DNA of 64,000 nucleotides from the NCBI GenBank assembly GCA_035264885.1, contig DATFPK010000019.1, positions 2,885 through 66,884 of the forward strand, written 5' to 3'. Shown here piece after piece: positions 23,318-50,406 of the stretch. Each line of letters opens with the position of its first letter. Within the stretch, counting starts at the first letter, position 1. The notes beneath the pieces are model-generated. The model made no database searches. It saw nothing but the letters and a program-made list of their open reading frames with translations, and had not been told where the DNA came from. This DNA comes from Solirubrobacterales bacterium. Its GTDB lineage: Bacteria; Actinomycetota; Thermoleophilia; Solirubrobacterales; 70-9. Position numbers and translations under genes: made by a program.

Positions 23318-23713
23318 CTAGATCTTGCCGAGGGCGTCGGCCGCCATCGCGGTGTCGGTCAGCGCCTGGACCTCGGTCACCTGACCGTCGCTGAAGCGCC
23401 AGACGTGGACCCAGGGCAGCTTCACGTCCTTGCCGGTGTCCTTGCCCTTTGCCTCGCTGTGGCTGAGGACGACCACCGTGTCCCCCTGCTCGATGAACTC
23501 GTCCGCGGTGATCGAAAACGACTCCCAGTAGTTGCCGAGCTCGGCGAACAGCTGCTTGACGTTGTCCTTGCCCTCGGTCACGCCGTTGTTCGGCACCTGC
23601 GGGGCCTCGGGGTTCTCCCAGCGGACGTCGTCGGCGAAGTTGGCCGTGGCGCCGTCGAGGTCGCCTCGGCCGAAGGCCTCGTAGCCCTCCTTCAGGGTGT
23701 CGGCGTTGGACAT
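23318..23713 (-). CDS. SnoaL-like / ketosteroid-isomerase-like protein
   Basis: MSNADTLKEGYEAFGRGDLDGATANFADDVRWE. 131 aa. Confidence 0.85.
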   Translation of the reverse strand: MSNADTLKEGYEAFGRGDLDGATANFADDVRWENPEAPQVPNNGVTEGKDNVKQLFAELGNYWESFSITADEFIEQGDTVVVLSHSEAKGKDTGKDVKLPWVHVWRFSDGQVTEVQALTDTAMAADALGKI

Positions 23714-23877
23714 GTCCTCTCCTTTCCTCGCTTGCTCCGCATGGCTGCAGCTGTTTCACCCTAAGCCACGGGCACGGACCCGCGCAAGCGTCCAGGTCTG
23801 CGGCTTTCTACGGATGCCCGTCCGCAGGCACCCGCGTTAGCTTGGAAACTGGTCATCCCTCGAAGGCAAGGAGAGCC

Positions 23878-26088
23878 TTGGACCGCAGTCGCAACCTCGC
23901 CGCCCGCGCCGCCCACTGGAGCGCCAACCACCGCAAGGTGGCGATCTGGGGCTGGCTCGCGTTCGTCGTCGTCGCCGTCTTCCTCGGCAACGCCGTCGGC
24001 CAGCAGGTCATCCACGGGGCAGACCAGTTCTCCGGCGAGTCCGGCGACGCGGAGCAGGCGCTCTACGCCAACGGCCTGCGTCCGAACGACGAGCACATCC
24101 TGGTCCAGTCCGAGACGCTGACCATCGCCGACCCCGAATTCCAGAGCGCGATCAACGATTCGATCGCGAAGCTCGAGAAGACCGACGACGTCGTCGAGAT
24201 CCAGTCGCCGCTCGGCGGCGGCGCAGCGGTCACCGAGGATCAGCACTCCGCCCTCGTCAACTTCGAGATCACCGGCGACACGCTCGAGGCGGCGGATCGC
24301 GTCGACCCCTCGATAGCCGTCGTCGACGAGGTCGCTGCCGACCATCCCGATCTCACGGTCGAGCAGTACGGGGCCGCCAGCACCCAGAAGGAGCTGAACG
24401 AGATCTTCTCGGAGGACCTCCTCCAGGCGGAGACCCTGTCGCTGCCGATCACGCTGCTGATCCTGATCGTCGCCTTCGGGTCGATCGTCGCCGCGCTGGT
24501 ACCCCTCTCGATCGGGATCACGGCGGTGGCCGCCGCCTCGGCGCTGGTCGCGATCCCGAGCCACCTCTCCCCGGTGGACAGCAACCTCTCCTCGGTGATC
24601 CTGCTGGTCGGCCTCGCGGTGGGGGTCGACTACTCGCTCTTCTACCTGCGGCGCGAGCGCGAGGAACGCGACCGCGGGCATGACGCCCGCTCGGCGCTCG
24701 ACATCGCCGCGGCCACGTCCGGGCGGGCGGTCCTGATCTCCGGGCTCACCGTGATCGCCGCCATGGCCGGCATGTTCTTCACCGGCGACAAGACCTTCGT
24801 CTCGTTCGCACAGGGGACGATCCTCGTCGTCGCGATCGCGATGTTCGCCTCGGTCACCGTCCTGCCCGCGATCCTGGCCTGGCTCGGGGAACGGGTCGAG
24901 AAGGGCCGGATCCCCTTCCTGTCGCGGCGGGGCACCGGCGAGTCCCGCTTCTGGTCCGCGGTCATTGCTCGGGTGATGCGCAGGCCCTGGCTCTCGATCG
25001 TCCTCGCCGGCGGCTTCCTGGTCGCCCTGTCGATCCCGGCCCTCAACATGAAGATCGTCCAGAGCGGCCCCGACGACCTGCCGCAGGACCTCGCGGTCAT
25101 CCAGACCTACAACGACGTCCGCGACGCGTTCCCGACCGAGGCGGTCGCGGTCGACGTCGTCGTCCAGGGCGCCGACGTGCGTGACCCGGCGACTTCGGCC
25201 GGCATCTCCCAACTCCGTCAGCAGGCCGAGACGATGCCGCATGTGCTGCCCGGCTCCGAGGTCACCTACAGCGACGACGACACGGTCGCCCTCGTCACGA
25301 TCCCTACCGAGGGCAGCAGCAACGACGAGGTGGCCACCTCGGCGATGAACGAAATCCGCGAGACGGTCATCCCGGCGACGCTCGGAGGCGTCGAGGGCGT
25401 CTCCGTGAATGTCAGCGGCGACGCGGCGGGAGCCCAGGACTTCCGCGACCTCGTCTCCGACCGGCTGCCGCTGATTTTCATGTTCGTCTTCGCGCTCGCG
25501 TTCGTCCTGCTGCTGTTCACGTTCCGCTCGATCGTGATCCCGATCAAGGCGATCATCCTCAACCTGCTGTCGGTGGGAGCCGCATACGGCGTGCTCGTGC
25601 TGATCTTCCAGGACGGCCATGGCGAGGGCGTGCTCGACTTCACATCAAACGGCGGCGTCACGTCATGGCTGCCGCTGTTCCTGTTCGTCCTTCTCTTCGG
25701 TCTCTCGATGGACTACCACGTGTTCATCCTGTCGCGGGTCCGCGAGGCCTACGACAGTGGCATGACGACTGCCGAGGCCGTGCGCCACGGGATCACGACC
25801 ACCGCCGGGACGGTGACGAGCGCCGCCCTCGTGATGGTCTTCGTCTTCCTCGTCTTCGCGACGCTCCAGTTCATCGACTTCAAGCAGATGGGGATCGGGC
25901 TCGCGACCGCAGTGTTCATCGACGCGACGATCATCCGCGGCGTCCTCCTGCCGGCGTCGATGAAGGTGCTGGACGACTGGAACTGGTACCTGCCGAGCTG
26001 GCTCGAGTGGATCCCGCACATCGGCGGCGAGCCGCCCTCGACTCCGCCGCCGGCGGCCAAGCCCGCGGCGCCCGCCGCCCGCGCCTAG
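23878..26088 (+). CDS. MMPL family (RND superfamily) transporter
   Basis: ORF 23842..26088. TTG 23878 is preferred because AAGGAGAG lies 4 nt upstream. Two MMPL domains of 12 TM helices, with GVDYSLFYL and GLSMDYHVFIL motifs. Confidence 0.9.
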   Translation: MDRSRNLAARAAHWSANHRKVAIWGWLAFVVVAVFLGNAVGQQVIHGADQFSGESGDAEQALYANGLRPNDEHILVQSETLTIADPEFQSAINDSIAKLEKTDDVVEIQSPLGGGAAVTEDQHSALVNFEITGDTLEAADRVDPSIAVVDEVAADHPDLTVEQYGAASTQKELNEIFSEDLLQAETLSLPITLLILIVAFGSIVAALVPLSIGITAVAAASALVAIPSHLSPVDSNLSSVILLVGLAVGVDYSLFYLRREREERDRGHDARSALDIAAATSGRAVLISGLTVIAAMAGMFFTGDKTFVSFAQGTILVVAIAMFASVTVLPAILAWLGERVEKGRIPFLSRRGTGESRFWSAVIARVMRRPWLSIVLAGGFLVALSIPALNMKIVQSGPDDLPQDLAVIQTYNDVRDAFPTEAVAVDVVVQGADVRDPATSAGISQLRQQAETMPHVLPGSEVTYSDDDTVALVTIPTEGSSNDEVATSAMNEIRETVIPATLGGVEGVSVNVSGDAAGAQDFRDLVSDRLPLIFMFVFALAFVLLLFTFRSIVIPIKAIILNLLSVGAAYGVLVLIFQDGHGEGVLDFTSNGGVTSWLPLFLFVLLFGLSMDYHVFILSRVREAYDSGMTTAEAVRHGITTTAGTVTSAALVMVFVFLVFATLQFIDFKQMGIGLATAVFIDATIIRGVLLPASMKVLDDWNWYLPSWLEWIPHIGGEPPSTPPPAAKPAAPAARA

Positions 26089-27366: not shown

Positions 27367-28133
27367 GCCGGCCCTCTGTCCGCGCCATGGTCGTGGTGGT
27401 CGTGGTGATGCGGCGGCAGAATGCCCCTCCCCTCCCCCGGGATCTCGATGATCTGCCCCCCGTAGGTGGCCTCGAGCACCTCCCGGCTCAGGACCTGCTC
27501 CGGCGGCCCGAAGGCGAGCTGGCGCCGGTTGATGCAGAGGACGGCGTCCCAGCGCCTGGCCTGCGAGACGTCGTGGGTGGCGATCACCACCGCGTTGCCG
27601 CCCGCTGCGAGGTCGTCGATCAGCGACTCGAGGCGATCGGAGCTCGGCGAGTCGAGGCCGCTGAAGGGCTCATCCAGGAGCAGGAGGCGAGCGTCGGCGA
27701 CAAGGGCGCGGGCGATCAGCACCCGCTGGCGCTGCCCGCCCGACAGGGCACCGAACCTCTCGCGTGCATGCCCGTCCAGCCCGACCCGTTCGAGCGCCGC
27801 CCGCGCCGCCTCCCGCTGCGCCCGGCCGGGCCGCTGCCACCAGGCGAGGCGCGGCAGCGACCCCATCAACGCGACGTCGAGCGCCGAGACCGGATAGTCG
27901 AGGCGCGAATGGTCGGTCTGGGGCACCGTCGAGATCGGCGCATCGACCGAAAGCGTTCCCTCCGCAGCGCGGAGGTGACCGAGGAGCGCCCTGAACAGGG
28001 TCGTCTTGCCGCCCCCATTGGGCCCGAGCAGCCCGATCCGGGAGCCGGCGTCGAAGCGGAAGCCAACCCCGTGGATCGCGGGCGTGCCGTCATAGCCCGC
28101 CGCCAGCCCGTCCGCTCTGGCGAGCACGGTCAC
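27363..28133 (-). CDS. metal ABC transporter ATP-binding protein
   Basis: Walker A GPNGGGKTT, signature LSGGQRQR, Walker B LLLLDEP. GTG 28133 forms a GTGA overlap with the upstream stop. The longest ORF starts at 28157. Confidence 0.9.
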   Translation of the reverse strand: MTVLARADGLAAGYDGTPAIHGVGFRFDAGSRIGLLGPNGGGKTTLFRALLGHLRAAEGTLSVDAPISTVPQTDHSRLDYPVSALDVALMGSLPRLAWWQRPGRAQREAARAALERVGLDGHARERFGALSGGQRQRVLIARALVADARLLLLDEPFSGLDSPSSDRLESLIDDLAAGGNAVVIATHDVSQARRWDAVLCINRRQLAFGPPEQVLSREVLEATYGGQIIEIPGEGRGILPPHHHDHHDHGADRGPA

Positions 28134-29863
28134 CGAGCGTCCTCCGCCAGGCGGCACCGGAGCCGGCCCCCCGTCAGCCCGCGGACGATGGCGTCCGTGT
28201 TCTCGGCCTCCATGCCCAGATAGGTTCCGGCGGGGTCGTCCTCCGGCGCGAGCGTATCCGTGTGCAGCTCCTCCCCCACCTCGGCGCCGCCGTCGGCGGC
28301 AACGGCATCGACCAGGTCGTGCGGGACGCCGCTCTCGGGGAAGACGGCTTCGATGCCGTCGCGCTCGATGAGGTCGGCCAGGTCGGCCAGCTCGCCGGCG
28401 GAGGGTTGGGCCTCCTCGTTCAGCGCCGGGGACAGGGATCCGGCCACCTGAAGGCCATACCGGTTCGCGTAGTAGCCGAGGGCGCCGTGCTGCGCCACGA
28501 GCTCACGGCTGGCGGCTGGGATGCGGGCCACGCAGCGCGCCACGTCCCGGTCGACGCGGCGGATCCTCCCGAGGTAGGCGGCGGCGCGCCGGCGGAGCTC
28601 GGGACCCGTCCGCGGCTCGGCCGCGGCCAGCGCGCCCTCGATCTCAGCGACCGCAGCGGCGGCGTTGCGCGGGTCATGCCACCAATGCGGATCCGTCTCA
28701 CCCTGGTCGTGGCCGTGCCCATCGAGCGGGACGCGCAGGTTGCGGTCGAGGCTGACCACGATCGCCTCGCTGCCGCTGCCGTCGACGAGTGTGCCGGTCC
28801 AGTCGTCGATGTCGCCGCCGCTGCGGAAGATGATCTCGGCCTCGGCCGTGGCGCTCACGTCCGAGGGCCGTGGCTCGTACTCGTGCGGGTCGGTGCCCGG
28901 CTCGACGACCTGCTCGACGTCGACCCCGGGCCCAGCGACATTGCGGACGAGGTCCGCGACCTCCGGCGTGGTGGCGACGACGCCGAGCCGGTCCCGTCCC
29001 ACGGCCACCGGACCGCAGCCGGCCAATGCCAGCCCGCCCAGGACCACGGCCGCAAGCGCCGCCTGGCGGGCACCGAGCGAGCGTGAGACCGCCACCCCCG
29101 CGAAGACCAGGCCGGATAGGACGGCGATCGCCGCCCCGGGCGGCGCGTCGGTCTCGATCGCCAGCCAGATCCCGAGGATCCCTTCGACGGCGGCGAGGGC
29201 CGTGGCGCCCAGCTGAAGGGCCGGCAGGCTGCTCGTGAGGAGGCGCACCGTGGCGGCGGGGACCACGAGGATCGCGGTCACCAGCAGCGCGCCGACGGTG
29301 GTGAGCGCGGCGGTGGCCGCCAATGCGACCGCCGCCAGCAGCAGGCCCTCGAGCCACGCCGTACCGGCGCCCAGCGCCGTCGCCGTCGCCGGGTCGAACC
29401 CGCGCGCCAGCCAGCGCGGTCCCGCGAACGCGGCAGTGGCGAGCGCCAGTCCGGCGGCGCCTCCGGCGAGCCACAGGTCTCCGGTGTCGATCAGCAACAG
29501 AGAGCCGAACAGCAGCGTCTCGACGTTCGGCCCCGAGGCGAAGATGTCGCTCGCAAGGATCACCCCTGCGGCGAGGCATCCCACCAGGACCAGGGCGGTG
29601 ACGCTGTCGGCTCCCGTCCGGTGTGAGCGTCCGACCGCCGCCGAGGCAACGACGAAAGCCAGGGCCGCCCCGAACCCCCCCAGGGCAGCCGCGAACCCCA
29701 GTCCCTCGGCGAGCACCAGCCCGGGGAAAGTCGCGGTCCCCACCGCGTGCACGAAGAAGGCCAGGCCGCGGAGGACGATGAAGCTGCCGAGCAGTCCGGA
29801 GACGACCGACAGCAGCAGGACCGCGGCGATCCCCGCCTGGACGTAGGGAAGCTCGATCGGCAC
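28130..29863 (-). CDS. ABC-3 permease fused in frame to a TroA/ZnuA-like metal-binding lipoprotein
   Basis: Residues 1 to about 256 form the permease. From the internal GTG 29095 the sequence reads MAVSRSLGARQAALAAVVLGGLALAGC (lipobox), followed by SBP motifs DPHEYEP and DPHWWHDP. There is no stop between the two halves. Confidence 0.8.
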   Translation of the reverse strand: MPIELPYVQAGIAAVLLLSVVSGLLGSFIVLRGLAFFVHAVGTATFPGLVLAEGLGFAAALGGFGAALAFVVASAAVGRSHRTGADSVTALVLVGCLAAGVILASDIFASGPNVETLLFGSLLLIDTGDLWLAGGAAGLALATAAFAGPRWLARGFDPATATALGAGTAWLEGLLLAAVALAATAALTTVGALLVTAILVVPAATVRLLTSSLPALQLGATALAAVEGILGIWLAIETDAPPGAAIAVLSGLVFAGVAVSRSLGARQAALAAVVLGGLALAGCGPVAVGRDRLGVVATTPEVADLVRNVAGPGVDVEQVVEPGTDPHEYEPRPSDVSATAEAEIIFRSGGDIDDWTGTLVDGSGSEAIVVSLDRNLRVPLDGHGHDQGETDPHWWHDPRNAAAAVAEIEGALAAAEPRTGPELRRRAAAYLGRIRRVDRDVARCVARIPAASRELVAQHGALGYYANRYGLQVAGSLSPALNEEAQPSAGELADLADLIERDGIEAVFPESGVPHDLVDAVAADGGAEVGEELHTDTLAPEDDPAGTYLGMEAENTDAIVRGLTGGRLRCRLAEDAR

Positions 29864-32534: not shown

Positions 32535-33197
32535 GTGGCCGATGAGGGACCTACTCGCCGGAATCGCCTAATCGGCCGAGGTGTGAACGAGATCGTCGCG
32601 CGGGCCCCGTGGCTCTGGCCGCTGATTCGTCCCGCTGTGCGGCGGTTCTTCTCCGCGCACGCCGCCGGCTGGGCTGACCGCGTCGGGGCGGGATCAGCGG
32701 CACACCTGGCGCCGCTCGCGACGGCGGCGCTCCACGTCGGCGCCGCTCCCGAGCGCGTCCTCGACGTCGGCTGCGGAAGCGGCGAGGGCACCCTGTTCCT
32801 CGCCCGCGAGTTCCCCCAGGCGCGGGTCCGCGGCGTCGACATCTCCGAGGAGATGATCCGTTTGGCCCGCGGCCGGGTGGGTCTGGACCCGGAGGGGCGG
32901 ATCGCATTCAAGACCGGCGACGCGGCCGAGCTGCCCTACCCCGACGGATCGTTCGACCTCGTGGCGCAGCTCAACCTGCCGCCGTTCTTCGCCGAGCTGG
33001 CGCGCGTGCTCCGCCCCGGTGGGCACGTGATCGTCGCCGCCAGCTGGGGCCCCGACACCCCGTTCTACACACCTGAGCGCCGCCTGGCCTGGGGATTCGC
33101 GAAACGCGGGATCGCCCAGGTCGCGGCCGGGGAGGCGGGCTCGGGCACCTACTTCGTCGGGCAGCTCGAGACAGCCGGGGCGAGCCCGTCCACATAG
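32535..33197 (+). CDS. class I SAM-dependent methyltransferase
   Basis: Motif I VLDVGCGSGEGTLFLA. Methyltransf_11-like. Confidence 0.85.
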   Translation: MADEGPTRRNRLIGRGVNEIVARAPWLWPLIRPAVRRFFSAHAAGWADRVGAGSAAHLAPLATAALHVGAAPERVLDVGCGSGEGTLFLAREFPQARVRGVDISEEMIRLARGRVGLDPEGRIAFKTGDAAELPYPDGSFDLVAQLNLPPFFAELARVLRPGGHVIVAASWGPDTPFYTPERRLAWGFAKRGIAQVAAGEAGSGTYFVGQLETAGASPST

Positions 33198-33255: not shown

Positions 33256-34170
33256 ATGGAGAGCGGGGTCAGTAACCGCCCGACCCGCGACCGGCCGCTG
33301 GCGCTGCTCGTCAACCCGGCCTCGGGCGGCGGGCGCACGGCCGCGAAGCTGCCGCGGGTCGAGGAGGAGCTCGATAAGCGCCGGGCGGTCTTCCGGGTCG
33401 AGCGCACCCGCGACGCCGGTCACGCCGTCGCCGAGGCCCTGCGAGCTGCCGACGCCGGGGAAGTCCCCGTCGTGATGAGCGGCGACGGCCTGATCGCGAT
33501 CGTCGGCGGCGCTCTCGCCGGCACCCCCACCCCACTCGGCATCGTCCCGGGCGGCCGCGGGAACGACCTGGCCCGGGTCCTCGGCATCCCCAGCGACCCC
33601 GCCGGGGCGGTCACGGTCCTGACCACGGGCCGGGAGCGGCGGGTCGACGTCGGCGAGGCGAACGGCCGTCGCTTCCTCGGGGTCGCCAGCGTCGGCTTCG
33701 ACTCGGACGCCAACCGGATTGCCAACGAGACCAGGCTGGTCCGCGGCAACCTCGTATACGCCTATGCGGCGCTGCGGGCGCTGCTGGGCTGGAAGCACGC
33801 GCGCTTCACGATCGCGGTCGGCGAGGAGCGGATGCGGTTCACGGGCTACACCGTCGCCGTCGCGAACAGCAAAGCCTACGGCGGCGGGATGTTCATCGCC
33901 CCCGATGCCGACCTGGGCGACGGCGAGTTCGACGTGGTGATGTGCGGAGAGTCCGGCAAGCTCCACTTCGTCCGTAACCTGCCCAAGGTGTTCAAGGGCA
34001 CCCACGTCGATCAGGAGGAGATCAGGATCTTCCGGACGTCGCACCTCGAGGTGAGCGCCAGCCGCCCGTTCGCCATGTACGCCGACGGCGAGCGCCTGAC
34101 CGACCTGCCGGCGAGGTTGCGCGTCCTCCCCGACGCGCTCAGCGTGATCGTGCCGGCGACCGGCGCTTGA
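33256..34170 (+). CDS. diacylglycerol-kinase-family lipid kinase (YegS/DagK-like)
   Basis: LLVNPASGGG, SGDGLI, GRGNDLARVLG. TTGA overlap with murT. Confidence 0.9.
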   Translation: MESGVSNRPTRDRPLALLVNPASGGGRTAAKLPRVEEELDKRRAVFRVERTRDAGHAVAEALRAADAGEVPVVMSGDGLIAIVGGALAGTPTPLGIVPGGRGNDLARVLGIPSDPAGAVTVLTTGRERRVDVGEANGRRFLGVASVGFDSDANRIANETRLVRGNLVYAYAALRALLGWKHARFTIAVGEERMRFTGYTVAVANSKAYGGGMFIAPDADLGDGEFDVVMCGESGKLHFVRNLPKVFKGTHVDQEEIRIFRTSHLEVSASRPFAMYADGERLTDLPARLRVLPDALSVIVPATGA

Positions 34171-35540
34171 GCGCCTTCGGGGCGAAGCTCGCCTTGTCGC
34201 GGGCTCTCGGCGTTGTGAGCCGGGCGAGCGGACGGGGCGGCGGGACGACCCTGCCGGGCCGCGTCCTGCTGCGGCTGGAGCCGAGCGCGATCGCCAGGCT
34301 GGGCGCCCGCCTGGATCGCGGCGCCACGGTGATCAGCGCGACCAACGGGAAGACGACCACCGCCGGGATGCTGGCGTCGATCCTCGCGTCGGCCGGCCGC
34401 CATCCGGTGCACAACCGGGCCGGGTCGAACATGACCTGGGGCGTCGCGACCGCGCTGCTCGAGCAGGAGGGCGAGGAGGGGTTGTTCGAGGTGGACGAGG
34501 CCTGGCTGCCCCGCGTGGTGGAGCAGCTCGACGCCCGACTCGCCCTCCTCGGCAACCTGTTCCGCGACCAGCTCGACCGCTACGGGGAGCTCGAGACCCT
34601 GGCCGACGAATGGGCGGCGCTGGTCGACCGACGGGCCGGTCGAACCTCCTGGGTCCTCAACGCCGACGACCCGCTCGTCGCCGACCTCGGCCGTGACCGC
34701 GACGGGAGCCCGCGCGAGGCCGTGACCTATTTCGGCATCGACGACCCCGGTCAGGCGCTGCCCGAGCTGCAGCATGCCCACGACGCCAAGCACTGCCGCC
34801 GCTGCGGTCACGCGTACGAGTACGCGCGGGCCTTCGTCGGGCACCTCGGCCACTACCGTTGCCCCAGCTGCGGCGCCGAGCGGCCGGGGCCCGACGTGGC
34901 CGCGACGCGGATCGAGCTGCACGGGATGTCGGGCTCGACGGTCGCCGTGCGGACCCCCCAAGCCGAGTTCGAGCTGAGCGTCCCCCTGCCCGGTCTCTAC
35001 AACGTCTACAACGCGCTCGGGGCGCTGGCGGCGGCGCTGCGAATGGGCGCAACGCACGAGCAGGGCGCGACGGGCATCGGCCGGATGCGGGCGGTCTTCG
35101 GCCGGGTCGAGACGATCGAGGTCGAGGGGAAACCGGTCTCGATCCTGCTGATCAAGAACCCGGCCGGGGCGAACGAGGTCCTGCGGACGCTGCGGCTCGA
35201 GGCGGGGACCGGCCAGCTCGACCTCTGGATCGCTCTCAACGACCGGATCGCCGACGGCCGCGACGTCTCCTGGGTCTGGGACGCGGATTTCGAGCTGCTC
35301 GGCCCGCATGTGAGGCGAATCATCTGCGCGGGCACTCGAGCGGCCGAGATCGCGCTGCGGCTGAAGTACGCGGGCTGGCCGCAGGACCGGATCGAGGTCG
35401 AGCCGGCGATCGCCGCCTCGCTCGATGGCGCGGTCGCGCAGGCCTCCGACCGTCTCTTCGCTCTACCGACCTACACGGCGCTGCTCGAGCTGCGCAATCT
35501 GCTCGCCGACCGCGGTCTCGCGAAGGAGTACTGGGCGTGA
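34167..35540 (+). CDS. murT: lipid II isoglutaminyl synthase subunit MurT (Mur ligase family)
   Basis: P-loop ATNGKTTTAGM. Cys4 ribbon CRRCGHAYEY...YRCPSCG. DUF1727-like C-terminus. Confidence 0.9.
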   Translation: MSAFGAKLALSRALGVVSRASGRGGGTTLPGRVLLRLEPSAIARLGARLDRGATVISATNGKTTTAGMLASILASAGRHPVHNRAGSNMTWGVATALLEQEGEEGLFEVDEAWLPRVVEQLDARLALLGNLFRDQLDRYGELETLADEWAALVDRRAGRTSWVLNADDPLVADLGRDRDGSPREAVTYFGIDDPGQALPELQHAHDAKHCRRCGHAYEYARAFVGHLGHYRCPSCGAERPGPDVAATRIELHGMSGSTVAVRTPQAEFELSVPLPGLYNVYNALGALAAALRMGATHEQGATGIGRMRAVFGRVETIEVEGKPVSILLIKNPAGANEVLRTLRLEAGTGQLDLWIALNDRIADGRDVSWVWDADFELLGPHVRRIICAGTRAAEIALRLKYAGWPQDRIEVEPAIAASLDGAVAQASDRLFALPTYTALLELRNLLADRGLAKEYWA

Positions 35541-36259
35541 CCGGCACCGTTGCCTGGCACGACCTCGAGTGCGCCTCCTACAGCGCCGACTTGCCGGTCT
35601 GGGAGAGCCTCGCGCAGCGGTACGGCGGACCCGTGCTCGATCTCGGTTGTGGGACCGGCCGGGTGGCGCTGCACCTCGCCCGCCGGGGCCACCAGGTCGT
35701 GGGCATCGACCGCGACGCGCCGCTGGTCGAGGAGATGCTGGCCCGGGCGGAGGCCGAGGCCCTGGATGTGGGCGGCGAGGCCGGAGACGCCCGCCGCCTC
35801 GACCTTGGCCGGGACTTCCCGCTCGTACTGGCGGCGATGCAGCTGGTTCAGCTGGTGGGACACCGGGCGGAGCGTGGGGCCCTGCTTCAAGGGGCCGCCG
35901 GCCACGTCGCTCCCGGCGGCGCGCTCGCCCTGGCGATCGTCGAAGCCCTACCCAGGACCGACCCGGACGCCCGCCCCCTGCCGGACGTCCTCGAGCGCGG
36001 CGGCTGGGTGCTTTCGAGCCTGCCGGTGGCGCTCGACCTCTCACCCGGCCGGATCCGCGTCCTGCGGCTCCGCCAGGCGGTCTCACCCGCAGGCGAGCTG
36101 AGCGAGGAACGCAGCGAGACCGAGCTGGCTCGGCTGGACGCGGCGGACCTGCGGCGCGAGGCCGAGGCCCACGGCCTCGTCGCCGAGGAGACCATCACCG
36201 TCCCCGCGTCCGCCGACCATGTGGGCTCGTCGATCCTCACCTTCGAAAGGGCGGTCTGA
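35537..36259 (+). CDS. class I SAM-dependent methyltransferase inserted between murT and gatD
   Basis: GTG 35537 forms GTGA with the murT stop. Motif I VLDLGCGTGRVALHLARRGHQVVGIDRD. The stop lies 2 nt before the gatD ATG. Confidence 0.8.
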   Translation: MTGTVAWHDLECASYSADLPVWESLAQRYGGPVLDLGCGTGRVALHLARRGHQVVGIDRDAPLVEEMLARAEAEALDVGGEAGDARRLDLGRDFPLVLAAMQLVQLVGHRAERGALLQGAAGHVAPGGALALAIVEALPRTDPDARPLPDVLERGGWVLSSLPVALDLSPGRIRVLRLRQAVSPAGELSEERSETELARLDAADLRREAEAHGLVAEETITVPASADHVGSSILTFERAV

Positions 36260-36261
36260 GG

Positions 36262-36996
36262 ATGGAGCTCCGGATTCTCGCCCTCTACCCCGACCATATG
36301 AACATCTACGCGGACCGGGGGAACATCGTCTTCCTCCAGCGGCGCTGCGAGTGGCGGGGGATCGGGTTCTCCTATGCCGGCGCCGGGCCCGGGGAGCAGA
36401 TCGACCCCGGAGACCACGACCTCCTCTACATGGGCGGCGGCCAGGATCGCGACCAGGTGATGGTCGCGCGCGACCTGGTCGAGACGAAACGCGACGCGCT
36501 CGCCGCCGCGACCGAGGACGGTGCCGTGCTGCTCGCGGTATGCGGCGGCTACCAGCTCCTCGGCCACAGCTACCAGCTCGGCGACGAGCGGGCGCCCGGG
36601 CTCGGGCTGGCCGACCTGGAGACAGTGCGGGAGCCGGGCGAGCGCCTGATCGGCAACGTCGCGATCGAGGCCGATTTCGGCGGAGCGCCTCATGTCATCG
36701 CGGGGTTCGAGAACCACGGCGGGAGGACCTACCTCGGTGAGGAGGCGCGCCCCCTGGGCCGCGTGTTGCGCGGACACGGGAACAACGGCCGGGACGGTCT
36801 CGAGGGCGTCCGCAAGGGCAACCTGATCGGTACGTACCTGCACGGGCCGCTACTGCCGAAGAACGCCTGGCTCGCCGATCACCTGATCTCGCTGGCGCTC
36901 GCCCGGCGGTACGGCGAGGCGCCGCGGCTCGAGCCGCTCGGCGACGAGTTCGAGACCGCCGCCCACCAGACCGCGCGCCGCGCGGCCGGGATCTGA
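36262..36996 (+). CDS. gatD: lipid II isoglutaminyl synthase glutaminase subunit GatD (CobQ-type amidotransferase)
   Basis: MELRILALYPDHMNIYADRGN. Nucleophile AVCGGYQLLG. GTYLHGPLLPKN. Confidence 0.9.
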   Translation: MELRILALYPDHMNIYADRGNIVFLQRRCEWRGIGFSYAGAGPGEQIDPGDHDLLYMGGGQDRDQVMVARDLVETKRDALAAATEDGAVLLAVCGGYQLLGHSYQLGDERAPGLGLADLETVREPGERLIGNVAIEADFGGAPHVIAGFENHGGRTYLGEEARPLGRVLRGHGNNGRDGLEGVRKGNLIGTYLHGPLLPKNAWLADHLISLALARRYGEAPRLEPLGDEFETAAHQTARRAAGI

Positions 36997-37545
36997 TCAG
37001 GTCGCGATGGTCCAGTCGTAATCGGCGTACTCGACCCCGAGGGTGTCGATCCGCGACAGCATCGAGGCGACCTCCGGCAGATACCTGGCGACAAACGCGA
37101 TCTGGGCGCGCCGGTCGCCGAAGTCGCCCCGGTAGATCCGCATCAGACGGGGCAGGGTCAGGACGCCTCCCTCGCGGTCGACACGGGTCTCCTGGTCGAG
37201 ATAGGACCGCGTCGCGAGGCGAAGCTGGGCGTCCAGTCCGGCGTCGTCGTAGAACCGCAGCGGCGGGCAAGAGCGAGCGCCGCAGTTCAGCGCGAAGTGG
37301 ATTCGCGGGTCGAGCCGCGAGGGGATGGCCGCGCGACGGGCGTCACGGCGGCGGAACGGGCGCCGCAGCGCGGTAGGAGCCCGGGCGTTCCGGCGCAGGA
37401 TGCCGTGCTCGATCTGGCTCAGCGTGAATGTTGCGTCGCCGACCCGATACGCGGCTCTCTCGAAGAGGCGAATGTGGCGGAGCAGGTTCCCGCTCCGCGG
37501 CCGCACGAGCATCTCGTGCAGGAAGAGCGCGTTGTAGACGTTCAA
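36997..37545 (-). CDS. DUF547 domain protein
   Basis: NVYNALFLH and HFALNCGARSCPPL motifs. TTG 37545 is the first canonical start, but family-like sequence continues to CTG 37731 (see findings). Confidence 0.75.
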   Translation of the reverse strand: MNVYNALFLHEMLVRPRSGNLLRHIRLFERAAYRVGDATFTLSQIEHGILRRNARAPTALRRPFRRRDARRAAIPSRLDPRIHFALNCGARSCPPLRFYDDAGLDAQLRLATRSYLDQETRVDREGGVLTLPRLMRIYRGDFGDRRAQIAFVARYLPEVASMLSRIDTLGVEYADYDWTIAT

Positions 37546-38181: not shown

Positions 38182-39531
38182 CTACTTGCCCGCGCCGGAC
38201 CGACCCGCGCCGTTGACGGAGAACTCCGCGAAGCGGTGGAGCTCGGCGGCGGGAACACGGGCGTGGACGAGGACGCCGTCCTCGCGCTCCTCGCGCTCGA
38301 GGTCGCCGGCGAGCTCGTGGAGCTCGGAGAGGCGGGCGCCCTCGCTGTAGGGGACGAGGAGCTCGACCTCGCGCAGGGTCTCCGCGAAGGCGCGCTCGAT
38401 TGCCTCCTCGAGCTGATCGAGCCCGGTCGCCTCGAGGGCGGAGACGAGCAAGGCGCCGGGATGCCGGAGCAGGACCTCGCGCTGCTCGTCGTCGTCGAGC
38501 AGATCGGCCTTGTTGAAGACCAGAAGGCGGGGCTTGCCCCCCGCGCCGATCTCCTCGAGTACGTCGTCGACCGCGCGCATGTCGGCCTCGCGCCGCTCCT
38601 CCGGCGCCGCAGCGTCGACGACGTGCAGGATCAGGTCCGACAGCGTCGTCTCCTCGAGCGTAGCCTTGAAGGCCTCGACGAGCTGGTGGGGCAGCTTCTC
38701 GATGAACCCGACGGTGTCGGTCACGAGGTAGCGGCGGCCGTCGTGCTCGAACGAGCGCGTGGTCGGGTCGAGGGTGTGGAACAGGCGGTCCCCGATGCTC
38801 GTCTCGGATCCGGTCATCGCGTTCTGCAGGGTCGACTTGCCGGCGTTCGTGTACCCCGCGAGGGCGACGCGGGGTACCGAGGACCGCTCGCGCCGAGCCC
38901 GCATCACATCGCGCGTGCGCTCGGTGCGGCTGAGCCTCCGCCGCAGCGCCGAGATCCGGTCGCGGGCGAGGCGGCGATCGGTCTCGATCTGGGACTCACC
39001 TGGGCCCCTGGTGCCGATGCCGCCGTCCATCCGGCCGGCGCCGAGACGCTCGAGGTGCGTCCACAGGCCGCGCATCCGGGCCAGGTTGTACTCGAGCTGG
39101 GCGAGCTCGACCTGGAGCTTGCCCTCGGCCGAGTGCGCATGGGCGGCGAAGATGTCGAGGATGATCGCCGTGCGGTCGATGACCGGTACGCCCAGCGCCG
39201 CCTCCAGATTGCGCTCCTGGCGCGGCGCCAGCTCGTCGTCACAGGCGACGAGGTTGGCGTCGCGACGCGCGATCTCCGTCTTCAGCTCCGCCAGCTTCCC
39301 GCGCCCGAAGTAGCGATCGGGGTCGGGCCGGTCACGCGGCTGGATCATCTGCCCGGCGGTCGCCACCCCCGCGGTCCGCAGCAGCTCCTTGAGCTCCTCC
39401 AGCGGCTCCTCGCCATGGCCGTCGGAGATCCCGATCGCCAGCGCCCGCTGCCGGGCTCGCGCCTTCGCGACGCCTGCGGCGCCGTCTCCGTTCCACGCCT
39501 GCGGGCTGCCTCCGTTGCTGGATCTGGGCAC
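38182..39531 (-). CDS. hflX: GTPase HflX
   Basis: G1 GYTNAGKST, DTVGFI, NKADL, HflX N-terminal domain. Confidence 0.9.
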   Translation of the reverse strand: MPRSSNGGSPQAWNGDGAAGVAKARARQRALAIGISDGHGEEPLEELKELLRTAGVATAGQMIQPRDRPDPDRYFGRGKLAELKTEIARRDANLVACDDELAPRQERNLEAALGVPVIDRTAIILDIFAAHAHSAEGKLQVELAQLEYNLARMRGLWTHLERLGAGRMDGGIGTRGPGESQIETDRRLARDRISALRRRLSRTERTRDVMRARRERSSVPRVALAGYTNAGKSTLQNAMTGSETSIGDRLFHTLDPTTRSFEHDGRRYLVTDTVGFIEKLPHQLVEAFKATLEETTLSDLILHVVDAAAPEERREADMRAVDDVLEEIGAGGKPRLLVFNKADLLDDDEQREVLLRHPGALLVSALEATGLDQLEEAIERAFAETLREVELLVPYSEGARLSELHELAGDLEREEREDGVLVHARVPAAELHRFAEFSVNGAGRSGAGK

Positions 39532-39575
39532 TCCTCCCGATTGTAGGGAGCAGCCGCGAGGGGATAGGCTGGCGC

Positions 39576-40571
39576 GTGATGAAGGTTTTCGTCACCGGCG
39601 GCACCGGATTCATCGGCGGTCACGTGGTGCGCCGTCTGCGCGATCGTGGCGACGGCGTCGTCTGCCTGGTCCGGGACCTCGGCAAGGGCGCCGAGCTCGA
39701 GGCGCTCGGCGCGACGCTGGTCGAGGGCGACCTCTCGCGCGGGGGCGTCATCTCCACCGCCATGCAGGGCTGCGACGCAGCGATCCACGGCGCCGCGATC
39801 TACGAGGTCGGCATCCCGAAGGGCGAGCGGCGCGCGATGCACGAGGCCAACGTGGTCGGGACCGAGCGGGTCCTCCGCGCCGCGCTCGAAGCTAAGGTGC
39901 CGAGGGTCGTCTACATCTCCACCGTCGCCGCGTTCGGTAACACCCACGGGGAGGTCGTGGACGAGACCTACGTGCACCCGGGCCAGGAGTTCACCTCCTA
40001 CTACGAGGAGACGAAGGTCGAGGCCCACCGGATCGCGAGGCGGATGATCGACGACGAGGGCCTGCCCCTGGTGATCGTCCAGCCCGGCGGCGTCTACGGC
40101 CCCGAAGACCACTCCTCGGTCGGCCAGCAGATCAATCAGTTCCTCGCCGGCCGGCTCCCGATGCTGCCGTTCCCCGACCTCGGCCTGAACCTCGTCCACG
40201 TCGAGGACGTCGCTGACGGCGTCCTGCTCGCGCTCGACAAGGGCCAGGTCGGCGAGTCCTACGTGCTCGGCGGCGAGATCACCTCCATGCGTGGCCTGAT
40301 CGACACCGTCGGCCGGGTTGCCGGGAGAAAGCCGCCGAAGCGGGCAATGCCGACCGCGATGCTGAAGCTGATGACGCCCGCCGGGCCGGTCGTCGGCAAG
40401 CTGATGGGCCAGCCGCCCAATCTCCGCGAGTTGATCAGCTCCGCCGACGGCGTCACGTTCTGGGCCCGCCACGACAAGGCGATGCAGGAGCTCGGCTACT
40501 CTCCGCGGGGGCTGGAGCAGGGGATCCGCGAGACCCTGGCCGCCGAGGGCAAGCTGCCCGCGGCCGCCTGA
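39576..40571 (+). CDS. NAD-dependent epimerase/dehydratase family (extended SDR)
   Basis: KVFVTGGTGFIGGHVV. YEETKVEAH (YxxxK). Confidence 0.9.
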   Translation: MMKVFVTGGTGFIGGHVVRRLRDRGDGVVCLVRDLGKGAELEALGATLVEGDLSRGGVISTAMQGCDAAIHGAAIYEVGIPKGERRAMHEANVVGTERVLRAALEAKVPRVVYISTVAAFGNTHGEVVDETYVHPGQEFTSYYEETKVEAHRIARRMIDDEGLPLVIVQPGGVYGPEDHSSVGQQINQFLAGRLPMLPFPDLGLNLVHVEDVADGVLLALDKGQVGESYVLGGEITSMRGLIDTVGRVAGRKPPKRAMPTAMLKLMTPAGPVVGKLMGQPPNLRELISSADGVTFWARHDKAMQELGYSPRGLEQGIRETLAAEGKLPAAA

Positions 40572-40637
40572 CCGCGGCGGCGCTTCATCGCTAGCCTGCC
40601 GCCCCGGCAGCCTCGTCCCCCCTATCAAGGAGAAACA

Positions 40638-41498
40638 GTGCTCACCCCGAACCGTCCGCGCCTCCGGGCGCTCACGCTGCTTGCCGCGGTGCTCTCGCTC
40701 GTCCTCATCGCCGCCTGCGGCGACGATGACGACTCGGGCTCCGGCGTCGACTCCGGCGACGCGGCGCCGTTCGACGTCTCGGTCGAGAACGCCGGCGGCT
40801 CGGTCGCGTTCGACGCGCCCCAGCGGGCCGCGGCCGGCCTGACCGCGATCACCCTCGCGAACGAGTCCAAGAAGCCCGAGGACCTCCAGCTGATCAAGGT
40901 CGAGGGCAAGCGCTCCGAGCAGGAGGTCGTCGCCGCCTACAACCAGGTCGGCCGGGGCGGCGCGCCGATCCCCGCCTGGTTCCTCGCCGGCGGTGGCGTC
41001 CCGACCACGGGGTCCGGTGACTCCGCCACGGTCGAGCAGGTGCTCGAGCCGGGCACCTACTACGGCTTCACCAGCGGGACTCAGGGCCACATGTCGTTCC
41101 AGGTCACCGGCCAGGCCTCGGACGCGGAGCTGCCCGAGGCGGACGCCACCGTGTCGGCCTTCGAGTACGGCTTCAAGGCGGAGGGACTGAAGTCCGGGGA
41201 GAACCGGATCCGTTTCGAGAACATGGGCGCCCAGCCGCATCACATGCTCGCCTTCCCGATCATCGGCAATGCCTCGGTCGAGGATGTGAAGCAGTTCGTC
41301 AAGACCGAGAAGGGCAAGCCGCCGGTCGACTTCGAGCAGGAGGTGTCGACCGCGGTCCTCGAGGGACAGACCTCACAGCTCGTCGACGTGAAGCTGGGCA
41401 AGCCGGGCCGCTACGCCCTGCTCTGCTTCATCAGCGACCGTCAGGGCGGACCCCCGCATGCTCTGAAGGGCATGGTGACCGAGGTGGACGTCGAGTAG
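40638..41498 (+). CDS. lipoprotein of unknown function, possible tandem cupredoxin-like folds
   Basis: SD AAGGAGA. Lipobox LIAACG. C-terminal HHMLAF...LLCFISDRQGGPPHALKGM. Confidence 0.7.
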   Translation: MLTPNRPRLRALTLLAAVLSLVLIAACGDDDDSGSGVDSGDAAPFDVSVENAGGSVAFDAPQRAAAGLTAITLANESKKPEDLQLIKVEGKRSEQEVVAAYNQVGRGGAPIPAWFLAGGGVPTTGSGDSATVEQVLEPGTYYGFTSGTQGHMSFQVTGQASDAELPEADATVSAFEYGFKAEGLKSGENRIRFENMGAQPHHMLAFPIIGNASVEDVKQFVKTEKGKPPVDFEQEVSTAVLEGQTSQLVDVKLGKPGRYALLCFISDRQGGPPHALKGMVTEVDVE

Positions 41499-41501
41499 CA
41501 G

Positions 41502-42338
41502 GTGCGACTGATCGACGTCCGGCACCTCGGCCGCGAGAGGGTGATCGGCTGCTGGGAGGCCGACGGCGTCCTGATCGACCCAGGCCCCTCCTCCTCGCTG
41601 GGGACGCTGCTGGCCGAGCTTGGTGACGAGCCGCCGCGAGCCCTCCTCCTCACCCACATCCACCTCGACCACGCCGGGGCCGCCGGGACCCTGGTGCGAC
41701 GCTGGCCCCACCTCCACGTCCACGTGCATGAGCGGGGCGCCCCGCACCTGGCCGACCCCTCGCGCCTTTTGGCCAGCGCCCAGCGCCTCTACGGCGACCG
41801 CATGGAGGAGCTCTGGGGTGAAGTCGCGCCCGTTCCCGGGGAGAACCTGCGGCCGCTCGTGGGCGGCGAGGAGGTCCTGGGGGTTCGCGTCGCCTACACC
41901 CCCGGCCACGCCTCCCATCATGTCAGCTATCTGCACGAGGACAGCGGTCGCGCCTTCGTCGGCGACGTCGCCGCAGTGCGAATTCCCCCGTCGGGTTTCG
42001 TCCTGCCCCCCACGCCCCCGCCCGACATCGACCTCGAGGCCTGGGAGCGGTCGCTGGACCTGGTCGGGGAGTGGCAGCCGGCGAGCATCGGCCTGACCCA
42101 CTTCGGCGCCGTCGAGGAGCCCCCGGCCCACCTCGAGCTGGTCCGCCGCCGGCTGCGCGAGCAGGCGCGGCGGGCCCGGGAGGGCGGACCGGAGGAGTTC
42201 GAGCGGGAGCTGCGCCGGCAGGTCGCCGCCGCCGGTGACAAGGGCACGGCCGCCGCGCTCCTTCAGGCGGTGCCGCCCGAGCAGCAGTACCTCGGCCTGG
42301 AGCGCTACTGGCGCAAGCGGGCCGAGACCGCGGAGTGA
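41502..42338 (+). CDS. MBL-fold metallo-hydrolase
   Basis: LLTHIHLDHAG (HxHxDH). Confidence 0.9.
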   Translation: MRLIDVRHLGRERVIGCWEADGVLIDPGPSSSLGTLLAELGDEPPRALLLTHIHLDHAGAAGTLVRRWPHLHVHVHERGAPHLADPSRLLASAQRLYGDRMEELWGEVAPVPGENLRPLVGGEEVLGVRVAYTPGHASHHVSYLHEDSGRAFVGDVAAVRIPPSGFVLPPTPPPDIDLEAWERSLDLVGEWQPASIGLTHFGAVEEPPAHLELVRRRLREQARRAREGGPEEFERELRRQVAAAGDKGTAAALLQAVPPEQQYLGLERYWRKRAETAE

Positions 42339-42351
42339 ACGGCGTCTGCGC

Positions 42352-43215
42352 CTAGGCGGCGGTCGTCTGCGCCGGCCGCGGTGCCGGCATCAGGGCCGCG
42401 GCGGCGATCACGGCTGCGAAGGCGAGCGAGCGAGCGACGATCTCGACGGCCCCGTTCCCCATCGGGTCGCCGAAGACGAGCACGCCGCCGAGGATCGCGG
42501 CACAGTTCGCGGCGACCGACGAGAGGGTGATGACAGCGATGGCCTCGCCGGTCTGGAGGCCGCGCGCGAGCGCGAAGAAGGCGAGGACGCCGGCGACGAC
42601 GGCGACCATCGTCCACGGGCCGAGGATGCTGACGGGATCCCCGGGAACCGTTCCGGTGAGCGCCTTGATCGAGACGTCGGAGACTCCGACGAGCAGGCCG
42701 GCCGCGGCGCCCAAGGCGGCGCCGTGGCGCGGTCCGGGGGTGTCCGAGCGCCCGCCGAGCAGCAGGCCGATGCCGATGCCGATCGCGCCGGCCTCGAAGG
42801 CTGCCATCGCCGGAATCGAGTAGCTGGCATGGGCTCCGCTCGTGTCGGTGCTGATCGCGAGCAGGGCGAGGCCGCCGGCGCTCAGGCCGAGGCCGGCCCA
42901 CTGCCTGGGCCCCAGGGTCAGCCCGAACCAGCGCTCGGCCGGGAACGCGAGCAGGACGAGGCCGCCGGAGATCAGCATCTGCACGAGCGAGAGGGGCGCG
43001 ACGGTCAGCGCCGCGACGTGGAGCAGCCAGGCCGCGGCGGCGATCCCGAAGCCGATCGTCCACCAGCGCGAGCGGAACAGCGCGGCGGCGCTGCGCCCCG
43101 GGTGGCGGAAGCTGACCGCGGGCGCGGCAAGGGCGCCGCGATGCTTGCACAGGCCCGACACGTTGGTGAGGAACGCGCAGGCGATGGAAAGTGTTATTCC
43201 GATCTCGATCATCAA
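42352..43215 (-). CDS. integral membrane protein (DMT/NIPA-like, about 9 TM helices)
   Basis: 287 aa, hydrophobic throughout, high GC3. The family assignment is tentative. Confidence 0.7.
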   Translation of the reverse strand: MMIEIGITLSIACAFLTNVSGLCKHRGALAAPAVSFRHPGRSAAALFRSRWWTIGFGIAAAAWLLHVAALTVAPLSLVQMLISGGLVLLAFPAERWFGLTLGPRQWAGLGLSAGGLALLAISTDTSGAHASYSIPAMAAFEAGAIGIGIGLLLGGRSDTPGPRHGAALGAAAGLLVGVSDVSIKALTGTVPGDPVSILGPWTMVAVVAGVLAFFALARGLQTGEAIAVITLSSVAANCAAILGGVLVFGDPMGNGAVEIVARSLAFAAVIAAAALMPAPRPAQTTAA

Positions 43216-43334
43216 GGGCGACCCTGCCTTCCATCGACGCGGCCCCGAGCGCGCTTGAAGGCATTGGACGACTGATCTGGAGCCCCCGCCCCTCAGTCGA
43301 AAAGTGGGTACCCGCTTGAGGCTAGCGAAACCCT

Positions 43335-44504
43335 CTACGCGAGGTGCATCCTCATCCGCTCGACCGCCTCCGCCAGGCGGTCCTCGGGCGTGGTCAGCGA
43401 GATCCGGATGAAACCCTCGCCGCTCGGTCCGTACATCGCGCCCGGCGAGACCACCACGCCCGCCTCCTCCAGCACGAGCTCCGCGAACGAGGTCGAGGTG
43501 TGGCCCTCCGGGACCGGCGCCCAGACGTAGATGGTGCCCCTGGGCACCGGGACGTCGACGCCGATCTCGCGCAGCGCGCCGACGACCAGGTCGCGGCGGC
43601 GGGCATAGGTCTCGTTCATCCGATCGAGCGGCCCCCGCGGCCCTTCGAGGGCGGCGACGCCGGCGAGCTGGACGGCCTCGAAGAGACCGGAGTCGACGTT
43701 GGTCTTCAGTCTCCAGTAGGCCTCGATGGCATCCCGGTTGCCCAGGATGGCGGCGCAGCGCCAGCCGGTCATGTTGAAGCCCTTCGAGAGCGAGAACACC
43801 TCGACGCCGACCTCCTTGGCGCCCGGTGTGGCCAAAAAGCTCGGCGCTTCGTAACCGTCGAACGTGGTCTCCGAATAGGCGCTGTCGTGGACGACGAGGG
43901 TCTCGTGCTCGCGGGCGAACGAGACCACGAGCTCGAAGAACCCATCCGGCACGACCGCCCCGGTCGGGTTGTTCGGATAGTTGACGAACATCAGGCGGGC
44001 CCTGCGGGCCACGTCGGCGGGCACGGAGCTCAGGTCAGGGGCGAAGCCCAGATCGGGGCTCAGGGGCAGCAGCTCGGCGGACGCGCCGGCCAGGGTGGGC
44101 CCGCCGGTGTAGACCGGGTATCCGGGGTCCGAGGCGAGGGCCACGTCGCCCGGGTCGAGGAAGGCGAAGCACAGGTTGTAGATGCACTCCTTGGCGCCGA
44201 TCGCCGGGATCACCTCAGCCTCCGCATCGATCTCGACCCCGAAGCGCCGCCCGTAGAAGCTCGCGAAGGCGTTTCGGAACTCGCCCCTGCCCCGGTTCGA
44301 CGGGTAGTTGTGGGTCCCGGGCCGGGCGACGGCCTCCTGCATCGCCTTGACGATGTGCGGATACGTCGGCTCGTCCGGATCCCCGATTCCGAGGCTGATC
44401 ACGTCGACCCCGGCCGCCTTCTTCTCGGCGATCCGCCGCTCGAGCTCGGCGAACATGTACGGAGGGATCGCCTCGAGACGGCGCGCGGGATCGGTCAGGG
44501 CCAC
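43335..44504 (-). CDS. dapL: class I/II aminotransferase, probable LL-diaminopimelate aminotransferase
   Basis: IPPYMFAELERR...GIGDPD, NNPTG, PLP-lysine SLSKGFNMTGWR. Adjacent to dapF. Confidence 0.75.
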   Translation of the reverse strand: MALTDPARRLEAIPPYMFAELERRIAEKKAAGVDVISLGIGDPDEPTYPHIVKAMQEAVARPGTHNYPSNRGRGEFRNAFASFYGRRFGVEIDAEAEVIPAIGAKECIYNLCFAFLDPGDVALASDPGYPVYTGGPTLAGASAELLPLSPDLGFAPDLSSVPADVARRARLMFVNYPNNPTGAVVPDGFFELVVSFAREHETLVVHDSAYSETTFDGYEAPSFLATPGAKEVGVEVFSLSKGFNMTGWRCAAILGNRDAIEAYWRLKTNVDSGLFEAVQLAGVAALEGPRGPLDRMNETYARRRDLVVGALREIGVDVPVPRGTIYVWAPVPEGHTSTSFAELVLEEAGVVVSPGAMYGPSGEGFIRISLTTPEDRLAEAVERMRMHLA

Positions 44505-44526
44505 GGCGCGGCAGCCTAGCGAGGGG

Positions 44527-46262: not shown

Positions 46263-46266
46263 GGCG

Positions 46267-47583: not shown

Positions 47584-47620
47584 CGCGCCCAGGATAGAAC
47601 GCGCCGCCGGGGCCAGAGCC

Positions 47621-48238: not shown

Positions 48239-48251
48239 GCGGGGCGGGATC

Positions 48252-50396: not shown

Positions 50397-50406
50397 GGAG
50401 AACCGG

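Follow-up and report, generated by a model that had tools for sequence, protein, structure and literature searches.

Why should a gene encoding a methyltransferase be placed between the genes that encode both subunits of the lipid II-amidating enzyme? This question is raised by a stretch of 64,000 nucleotides (nt) from a Solirubrobacterales bacterium (GenBank assembly GCA_035264885.1, contig DATFPK010000019.1), referred to here as the window, in which murT and gatD enclose an open reading frame (ORF) for a predicted class I S-adenosylmethionine (SAM)-dependent methyltransferase, designated MT2, with a lipid kinase gene, dagK, directly upstream of murT. The components of this locus are all of known kinds; what the searchable literature does not describe is a fixed unit with the order dagK–murT–methyltransferase–gatD, together with a methyltransferase family known from no other place than the operon of the lipid II amidotransferase. 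The arrangement hints at an undescribed modification of the cell wall, without proving one.

Conservation of the arrangement

The four genes of the unit are read from the forward strand of the window and are tightly packed. The dagK gene (33256–34170), encoding a soluble lipid kinase of 304 amino acids (aa), ends in a TGA codon that overlaps the TTG start codon of murT in the sequence TTGA at 34167–34170; murT (34167–35540), whose product of 457 aa is the subunit of lipid II isoglutaminyl synthase that resembles a Mur ligase, overlaps in turn with the GTG start codon of MT2 (35537–36259; 240 aa) in the sequence GTGA at 35537–35540; and the MT2 stop codon (TGA, 36257–36259) is followed by GG and then, after this 2 nt spacing, by the ATG of gatD (36262–36996), which encodes the glutaminase subunit of the synthase (244 aa). 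Direct reading of the forward strand also reveals a Shine–Dalgarno-like hexamer, AAGGAG (35523–35528), inside the coding end of murT and 8 nt upstream of the MT2 GTG. An earlier note on this DNA had reported the position of MT2 between murT and gatD, both overlaps and the gap of 58 nt that separates dagK from a further methyltransferase gene upstream (MT1), and all of these coordinates and junctions were borne out by the ORF map and the raw sequence. A terminator scan gave three weak matches, approximately the level obtained with shuffled sequence (mean 1.1), and none of them was on the forward strand between genes of the operon. Judged by this gene structure, MT2 is transcribed together with murT and gatD and is coupled to both in translation, and the overlapping codons would be consistent with stoichiometric co-expression of the three products.

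We compared the window with 93 related loci, comprising 11 genomic orthologues, 80 metagenome loci and two distant representatives, in which the identity of the methyltransferase to MT2 extends down to 34%. MT2 lies beside murT and/or gatD in all 93, a recurrence far beyond chance, and the tight coupling to which the earlier note drew attention is therefore kept across the lineage rather than confined to one strain. The genome scan yielded at least 11 full-length orthologues of 40–53% identity, and each of the 11 is located between murT and gatD; their sources are metagenome-assembled genomes (MAGs) labelled Solirubrobacterales, Solirubrobacteraceae, Thermoleophilaceae or unclassified Actinomycetota. 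The metagenome loci were collected with a family-specific C-terminal pattern taken from a closer alignment (A3), and the order murT–MT2–gatD was present wherever there was room on both sides (69 of 69 loci), the remaining 11 loci being cut by a contig end with the visible partner kept in each.

The family is large and deep. An exhaustive profile search returned 353 clusters (50% identity) at E ≤ 1e-30, nearly all with lengths of 230–290 aa, and two of the most distant representatives (34–36% identity) were both found within a dagK–murT–methyltransferase–gatD unit. The few cluster members that carry a name are Solirubrobacteraceae MAGs, and a second homologue search, seeded from locus L010, led to another large subfamily whose members are unnamed or from MAGs. 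Every family member that could be named or placed belongs to the Solirubrobacterales/Thermoleophilia, and a tie of the family to mycobacteria is unsupported. Among the matches listed, no full-length member of the family occurs in any other context, and outside the lineage there are only matches to the Rossmann half of the protein (26–43% identity), none of which has murT or gatD nearby.

The spacing within the unit is conserved along with the gene order. In all but one of 91 loci the gatD start lies at a distance of −5 to +6 nt from the MT2 stop codon, the most frequent value being −1, i.e. an overlap of 1 nt, and from the murT stop codon to the codon for a conserved tryptophan of MT2, Trp7, it is 8–41 nt in most loci. 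The murT–gatD slot is kept while the flanking genes vary.

MT2 behaves as a real gene under purifying selection, as judged by a ratio of non-synonymous to synonymous substitutions of about 0.22 in nine independent close pairs, the corresponding values for MurT and GatD being 0.18 and 0.14. Within 36 homologues of 50–74% identity there are 34 invariant columns, including those of the SAM-binding motif I and of Asp58 (D58), and the N-terminal helix carries a distinctive motif, W-H-D-x-E-C-x-x-Y-x-x-D. Horizontal acquisition of MT2 was considered and rejected, as its G+C content at third codon positions (0.89) lies within the range of its neighbours (0.87–0.94).

The nearest relatives outside the lineage (L013:5956–7542 and L014:5121–6771) are methyltransferases about 260 aa long whose similarity to MT2 is confined to its N-terminal half. 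They adjoin a gene of the YebC/TACO1 family in one MAG from the Vicinamibacterales and one from the Chloroflexota, and may represent an ancestral housekeeping family that gave rise to the murT–gatD methyltransferase. The neighbours of the out-of-lineage partial relatives L012–L014 are genes for ScpA, an ABC transporter, YebC and UvrB, and say nothing about function; for a further relative, L036, the scan covered the methyltransferase alone.

Sequence and predicted structure of MT2

By its sequence and its structural model, MT2 is assigned as a class I SAM-dependent methyltransferase with a TylM1/CypM/CorZ-like architecture. It matches Pfam family PF13649 (Methyltransf_25) with 56.2 bits, the cutoff being 27, and the sequence LDLGCGTG at residues 34–41, which corresponds to the GxGxG of motif I, is invariant in the 36 homologues. 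Of the acidic residues, D58 at the end of β2, where ribose is bound, is likewise invariant and D84, following β3, nearly so; the positions of both fit strands 54–58 and 78–82 of the model. The AlphaFold2 (AF2) model itself (pLDDT 93.7, pTM 0.91) has a seven-stranded Rossmann-like fold, and on this core is set a C-terminal β-sheet domain whose strands fall within residues 150–238.

A Foldseek search with the model gave 972 matches in the PDB at E ≤ 0.001, and the best 50 of these 972 are all methyltransferases. When aligned structurally with the model over the full length, TylM1, DesVI and CypM gave template modelling (TM) scores of 0.76–0.80, and the scores for the wider set of TylM1, DesVI, CalS10, KedS8, CypM and CcbJ were 0.7–0.8 over about 240 residues; CgnL, NmbA and three indole C-methyltransferases (PsmD, SgMT and SeMT) matched more weakly. 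By sequence, the best match among solved structures is CorZ, followed by CypM, the structural-genomics protein 1wzn, CcbJ, YunM and NmbA. When MT2 and CorZ were aligned by hidden Markov model (HMM), the nearly invariant His8 of MT2 was placed at the tyrosine of the CorZ motif ‘LYD’, and C12, Y15 and D18 were identical in the two proteins. The conserved residues W7, H8, E11, C12, Y15, R177 and R179 are putative acceptor-side residues. Fold and motifs together suggest that MT2 would be a soluble, probably dimeric, SAM-dependent enzyme.

For the most part, the characterized enzymes of this architecture transfer methyl groups to free amines, either on aminosugars or on short peptides, and by analogy nitrogen is the favoured methyl acceptor; with identities of only 19–26%, this homology serves as a lead on the chemistry and not as a test of it. 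The earlier note had proposed methyl-esterification of a free carboxylate, for which no specific support emerged, the closest characterized relatives (CorZ, CypM, the daptide methyltransferase and TylM1) being free-amine N-methyltransferases. It had also allowed that the family might have an established, unrelated substrate, and none was found.

Variants of the murT–gatD slot

In a number of loci the slot between murT and gatD holds more than a single methyltransferase gene. At L009 (6004–7437) a pair of copies with 56% identity form an in-frame fusion without an intervening stop codon, and two tandem copies are present at L110 (2638–4094) and at L135 (5–1019), those of L110 being separate and 55% identical. 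Given these copy identities of 55–56%, the duplications are old and have been maintained. The product of the L009 fusion would form a covalent pseudo-dimer, in keeping with the dimeric state of TylM1-like enzymes.

A different addition is seen at L116, L117, L120 and L157, where an extra ORF of about 190 aa (L157:2907–3530) lies between murT and the methyltransferase gene. At L157 it overlaps the latter by 4 nt (ORF end at 3530, methyltransferase start at 3527), and we infer that the junction with murT is also close, the likely start being an ATG a few nt past the murT stop codon. The product scores above the Pfam threshold for the GGACT/AIG2-like γ-glutamyl cyclotransferases (28.9 versus 22.8 bits). 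Since the stem peptide of peptidoglycan contains a bond between a γ-D-glutamyl residue and meso-diaminopimelic acid (mDAP), a GGACT-like fold in this position lends circumstantial support, and no more, to the idea that the slot serves stem-peptide chemistry, and the ORF may encode a second accessory enzyme directed at the stem peptide.

MurT, GatD, DagK and MT1

MurT (domains Mur_ligase_M and MurT_C) and GatD (domain GATase_3) are both matched over their full length by subunits of the solved lipid II isoglutaminyl synthases 6fqb, 6gs2 and 9sq9, MurT by 6fqb_A with E = 9.8e-64 and GatD by 9sq9_C with E = 1.3e-45. The catalytic motifs are kept in both proteins. MurT has the P-loop NGKTTT at residue 60, a Cys4 zinc ribbon formed by CRRC at 210 and CPSC at 232, and the motifs DGRD at 363 and WDADFE at 371, the aspartate of DGxD being the residue that completes the GatD triad; GatD has its catalytic cysteine in CGGYQ at residue 94 and its catalytic histidine in HGP at 194. 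On the basis of these matches and motifs the two proteins look like a normal, catalytically intact amidotransferase. MurT falls below the narrow NCBIfam equivalog cutoff (253.9 versus 800 bits), which fits a distant orthologue, and GatD likewise falls below its equivalog cutoffs (178 versus 400 and 450 bits).

DagK is a member of the YegS/Rv2252/BmrU family, with a score of 146.6 bits against a cutoff of 118.65 for TIGR00147 and with both DAGK_cat (PF00781) and YegS_C (PF19279) domains. Its gene is directly upstream of murT in all 48 related loci whose sequence extends 1 kb or more in that direction, at distances that are mostly between −19 and +38 nt. This conserved position of dagK suggests that the whole four-gene unit serves the metabolism of lipid-linked envelope precursors; we are not aware that a soluble DAGK_cat kinase has been connected with the amidation of lipid II. 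The coupling of dagK to the start of murT is as consistent as that of MT2 to gatD.

MT1 (32535–33197, forward strand) encodes a UbiE/MenG-like class I SAM methyltransferase of 220 aa with matches to Pfam Methyltransf_25/11; its matches to NCBIfam models are weak and all below threshold. A tblastn search with the MT1 of the window placed a counterpart upstream of dagK at many of the related loci, though some with room for it had none, and MT1 is thus a variable member of the cluster.

Other features of the window

Scans for Rfam families, tRNA genes and promoters gave no matches, with no tRNA and no Rfam family at the gathering threshold in the whole window (1–64000). Immediately downstream of the unit, a DUF547 ORF on the reverse strand (36997–37545) ends at the base that follows the gatD stop codon; it would seem to be an insertion particular to this genome, as related loci have a dUTPase gene or other sequence at this point. 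The operon is adjoined by a block of core chromosomal genes (38182–51531), with hflX, an aminotransferase gene, a probable dapF, miaA, miaB and the genes for RNase Y and RecA. The probable dapF (44527–45372) would place a gene of the mDAP pathway only about 8 kb from the genes for lipid II amidation. On the other side of the unit, the reverse-strand ORF at 28130–29863 (577 aa) contains an ABC-3 (ZnuB-type) permease domain at residues 6–255 and a ZnuA domain at residues 295–561, and is a fusion of a permease with a periplasmic metal-binding protein. The G+C content falls to 0.67 at 24001–26000, within a gene for an MMPL transporter (23560–26088).

Possible function of MT2

Our current working hypothesis, which we hold tentatively and would stop short of calling probable, is that MT2 is a lineage-specific methyltransferase of the Solirubrobacterales/Thermoleophilia with the lipid II stem peptide as its substrate, working with MurT and GatD. 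Modification of the stem peptide, an idea already raised in the earlier note, is the best single explanation for the exclusive and deep co-location of the genes, their conserved translational coupling and a fold typical of methyltransferases for peptides and small molecules. Working on the cytoplasmic side of the membrane, the enzyme would share the substrate of MurT/GatD, adding one or two methyl groups to the L-Ala-γ-D-Glu/isoglutamine-mDAP-D-Ala-D-Ala stem peptide of lipid II or of its nucleotide precursor. The peptidoglycan of the Solirubrobacterales is of type A1γ with meso-DAP (PMC3035278). The only free amine on such a stem peptide, that at the D-centre of mDAP, is a candidate acceptor. 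Homology, in pointing to nitrogen, would favour this amine or, less likely, the newly formed carboxamide of isoglutamine, and the precedent of the mycobacterial lipid II product would favour a carboxyl methyl ester. Still more guardedly, we suggest a three-enzyme lipid II tailoring unit, MurT–methyltransferase–GatD, which in the Solirubrobacterales would amidate D-isoglutamate and also install a previously undescribed methyl group on the stem peptide, the candidate products being N-methylated meso-DAP, N-methyl-isoglutamine and a stem-peptide methyl ester.

A number of considerations weigh against a role for MT2 in stem-peptide methylation. The evidence is that of guilt by association only, and positional conservation alone is weak evidence here, because the whole neighbourhood, from the gene for a peptidyl-prolyl isomerase (PPIase) to hflX, is syntenic in the lineage. 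Unrelated genes can sit stably between those of interacting subunits, as rimI does between tsaB and tsaD. MT2 is also the fastest-evolving protein of the cluster, with a median identity to the window protein of 49.8% (MurT 72.8%, GatD 76.4%, DagK 67.2%). The profile search of homologues revealed no genuine fusion of the methyltransferase with MurT or GatD; the only long match, P0181 (426 aa, methyltransferase plus GATase_3), was rejected as a fusion, being a read-through artefact riddled with frameshifts. Methylation of the mDAP amine would remove the stem as an acceptor in transpeptidation and could therefore only be partial, and a methylated muropeptide has not been reported for this lineage.

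Most of these points are equally at home in the alternative that fares best, namely that MT2 is a conserved passenger of the operon, a housekeeping enzyme that methylates something unrelated, be it a small molecule, an RNA or a protein, and that was inserted in an ancestor of the lineage and persists because its excision would break the translational coupling of gatD. The regional synteny, the much faster evolution of MT2 than of MurT and GatD, the want of a true fusion with either partner and the precedent of the tsaB–rimI–tsaD operon can all be read in this way, as can the similar length and housekeeping context (YebC, ScpA, UvrB) of the nearest relatives outside the lineage. We take this rival seriously, although it is less likely than not. 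The full-length family, with its C-terminal domain, is seen only in the murT–gatD slot at every one of the loci compared and down to the lowest identity among them; the slot also draws duplicates and, in one subclade, an enzyme fold directed at γ-glutamyl groups; and the closest characterized relatives act on peptides and aminosugars, not on RNA or proteins.

A second alternative is that the synthase is itself the target, with MT2 methylating MurT or GatD, or that MT2 joins the synthase as a third subunit, non-catalytic or regulatory in nature, which, for example, gates its activity by SAM status. The position of the gene between those of the two subunits, with overlapping codons on both sides, would suit such a role, and coupling would be expected to give similar levels of expression. 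This is nonetheless improbable, as the SAM motifs and the putative acceptor-side residues are conserved as in an active small-molecule enzyme, the structural relatives are methyltransferases of small molecules and peptides rather than of proteins, and the solved complexes of other phyla work as heterodimers without a third subunit. Equally improbable is the view that MT2, possibly together with MT1, joins the lipid kinase in modifying a membrane lipid, by head-group N-methylation or by acting on other polyprenyl-linked intermediates, with murT and gatD as mere neighbours: the coupling of dagK to murT does hold in all 48 loci, and MT1 weakly matches lipid methyltransferases such as PmtA and Mtf2, all far under the cutoffs, yet murT separates MT2 from dagK, MT2 is coupled most tightly to gatD, MT1 is not upstream of dagK in every locus with room and MT2 has no above-background similarity to known phospholipid methyltransferases.

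An enzyme that methylates peptidoglycan or its precursors is not known, and the methylated stem peptides that have been seen in mycobacteria and Pseudomonas are unexplained in origin and function. The MT2 family is a concrete candidate, fixed across an abundant soil lineage and open to testing by mass spectrometry, and a methyltransferase-dependent stem-peptide species of +14 Da, if found, would make the finding markedly more interesting. If stem-peptide methylation is indeed its function, MT2 would be the first methyltransferase of a peptidoglycan precursor to be identified and would represent a new kind of cell-wall tailoring, with possible effects on cross-linking, on how well the wall withstands lysozyme and amidases, and on recognition by innate immunity; it would also provide a handle with which to search for analogous enzymes elsewhere. 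If MT2 is instead a passenger, the locus would show in clean form how translational coupling can fix a gene in its position.

Comparison with known systems

Our search of the literature found no mention of a peptidoglycan or lipid II methyltransferase, and the searchable literature contains neither a fixed dagK–murT–methyltransferase–gatD unit nor a methyltransferase family confined to the lipid II amidotransferase operon. The nearest system in terms of gene organization is the MurT/GatD operon of Staphylococcus aureus (SA1708/SA1707), Streptococcus pneumoniae and Mycobacterium tuberculosis (Rv3712/Rv3713), in which, as in the window, both subunits are encoded in the same orientation within one operon. 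We take murT and gatD to be adjacent in these model organisms; the window differs in having a coupled methyltransferase gene between the subunit genes and a coupled lipid kinase gene upstream, both fixed in the lineage.

In terms of the protein, two enzymes of peptides that are made ribosomally and then modified post-translationally (RiPPs) are the most similar. A daptide methyltransferase N,N-dimethylates a C-terminal amine. The daptide-type family NF041820 gives the best match to a curated family, and the only full-length one (residues 24–234 of MT2 against 31–242 of 243), yet at 84.9 bits MT2 lies well below the curated cutoff of 175 bits for membership, and neither a daptide precursor nor a partner enzyme was found nearby, the neighbours of MT2 being dagK, murT and gatD in every locus. 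CorZ/BytZ (PDB 9SOT/9SOV), the N-methyltransferase for the N terminus of the biarylitide RiPP myxarylin, gives the best sequence match to a solved structure (70.5 bits), and this match takes in the N-terminal helix motif, with its C, Y and D aligned, as well as the Rossmann core. CorZ methylates the free N-terminal amine of the tripeptide myxarylin (PMC12951456). Unlike a full-length relative, however, it matches only residues 5–132 of MT2, and its context is RiPP biosynthesis rather than the cell wall.

The aminosugar N,N-dimethyltransferases TylM1, DesVI and CalS10 and the cypemycin N-terminal dimethylase CypM share the fold of MT2, including the C-terminal β-sheet domain, but are only 19–26% identical to it in sequence and act on dTDP-aminosugars or a linaridin peptide. 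The catalytic His123 of TylM1 is not obviously kept in MT2, where the corresponding motif reads APMQLLQL; and where these enzymes have an N-terminal helix tyrosine near the acceptor amine (Tyr14 of TylM1, ‘LYD’ in CorZ), the HMM alignment with CorZ would place His8 of MT2.

Finally, the carboxyl methylation of mycobacterial lipid II is the nearest counterpart to the product proposed for MT2, being a methylated stem peptide from another actinobacterial lineage to which no enzyme has been assigned. As cited from Mahapatra et al. (2005), lipid II of Mycobacterium smegmatis is methylated on the carboxyls of Glu, mDAP or the terminal D-Ala, and a 2025 review still calls the function of lipid II methylation unknown and names no enzyme; the mention of such methylated carboxyls in the earlier note, which likewise assigned them no enzyme, was therefore correct. 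The mycobacterial case is thus a product without an enzyme and MT2 an enzyme without a product, with the difference that the homology of MT2 points to N-methylation and not to O-methylation.

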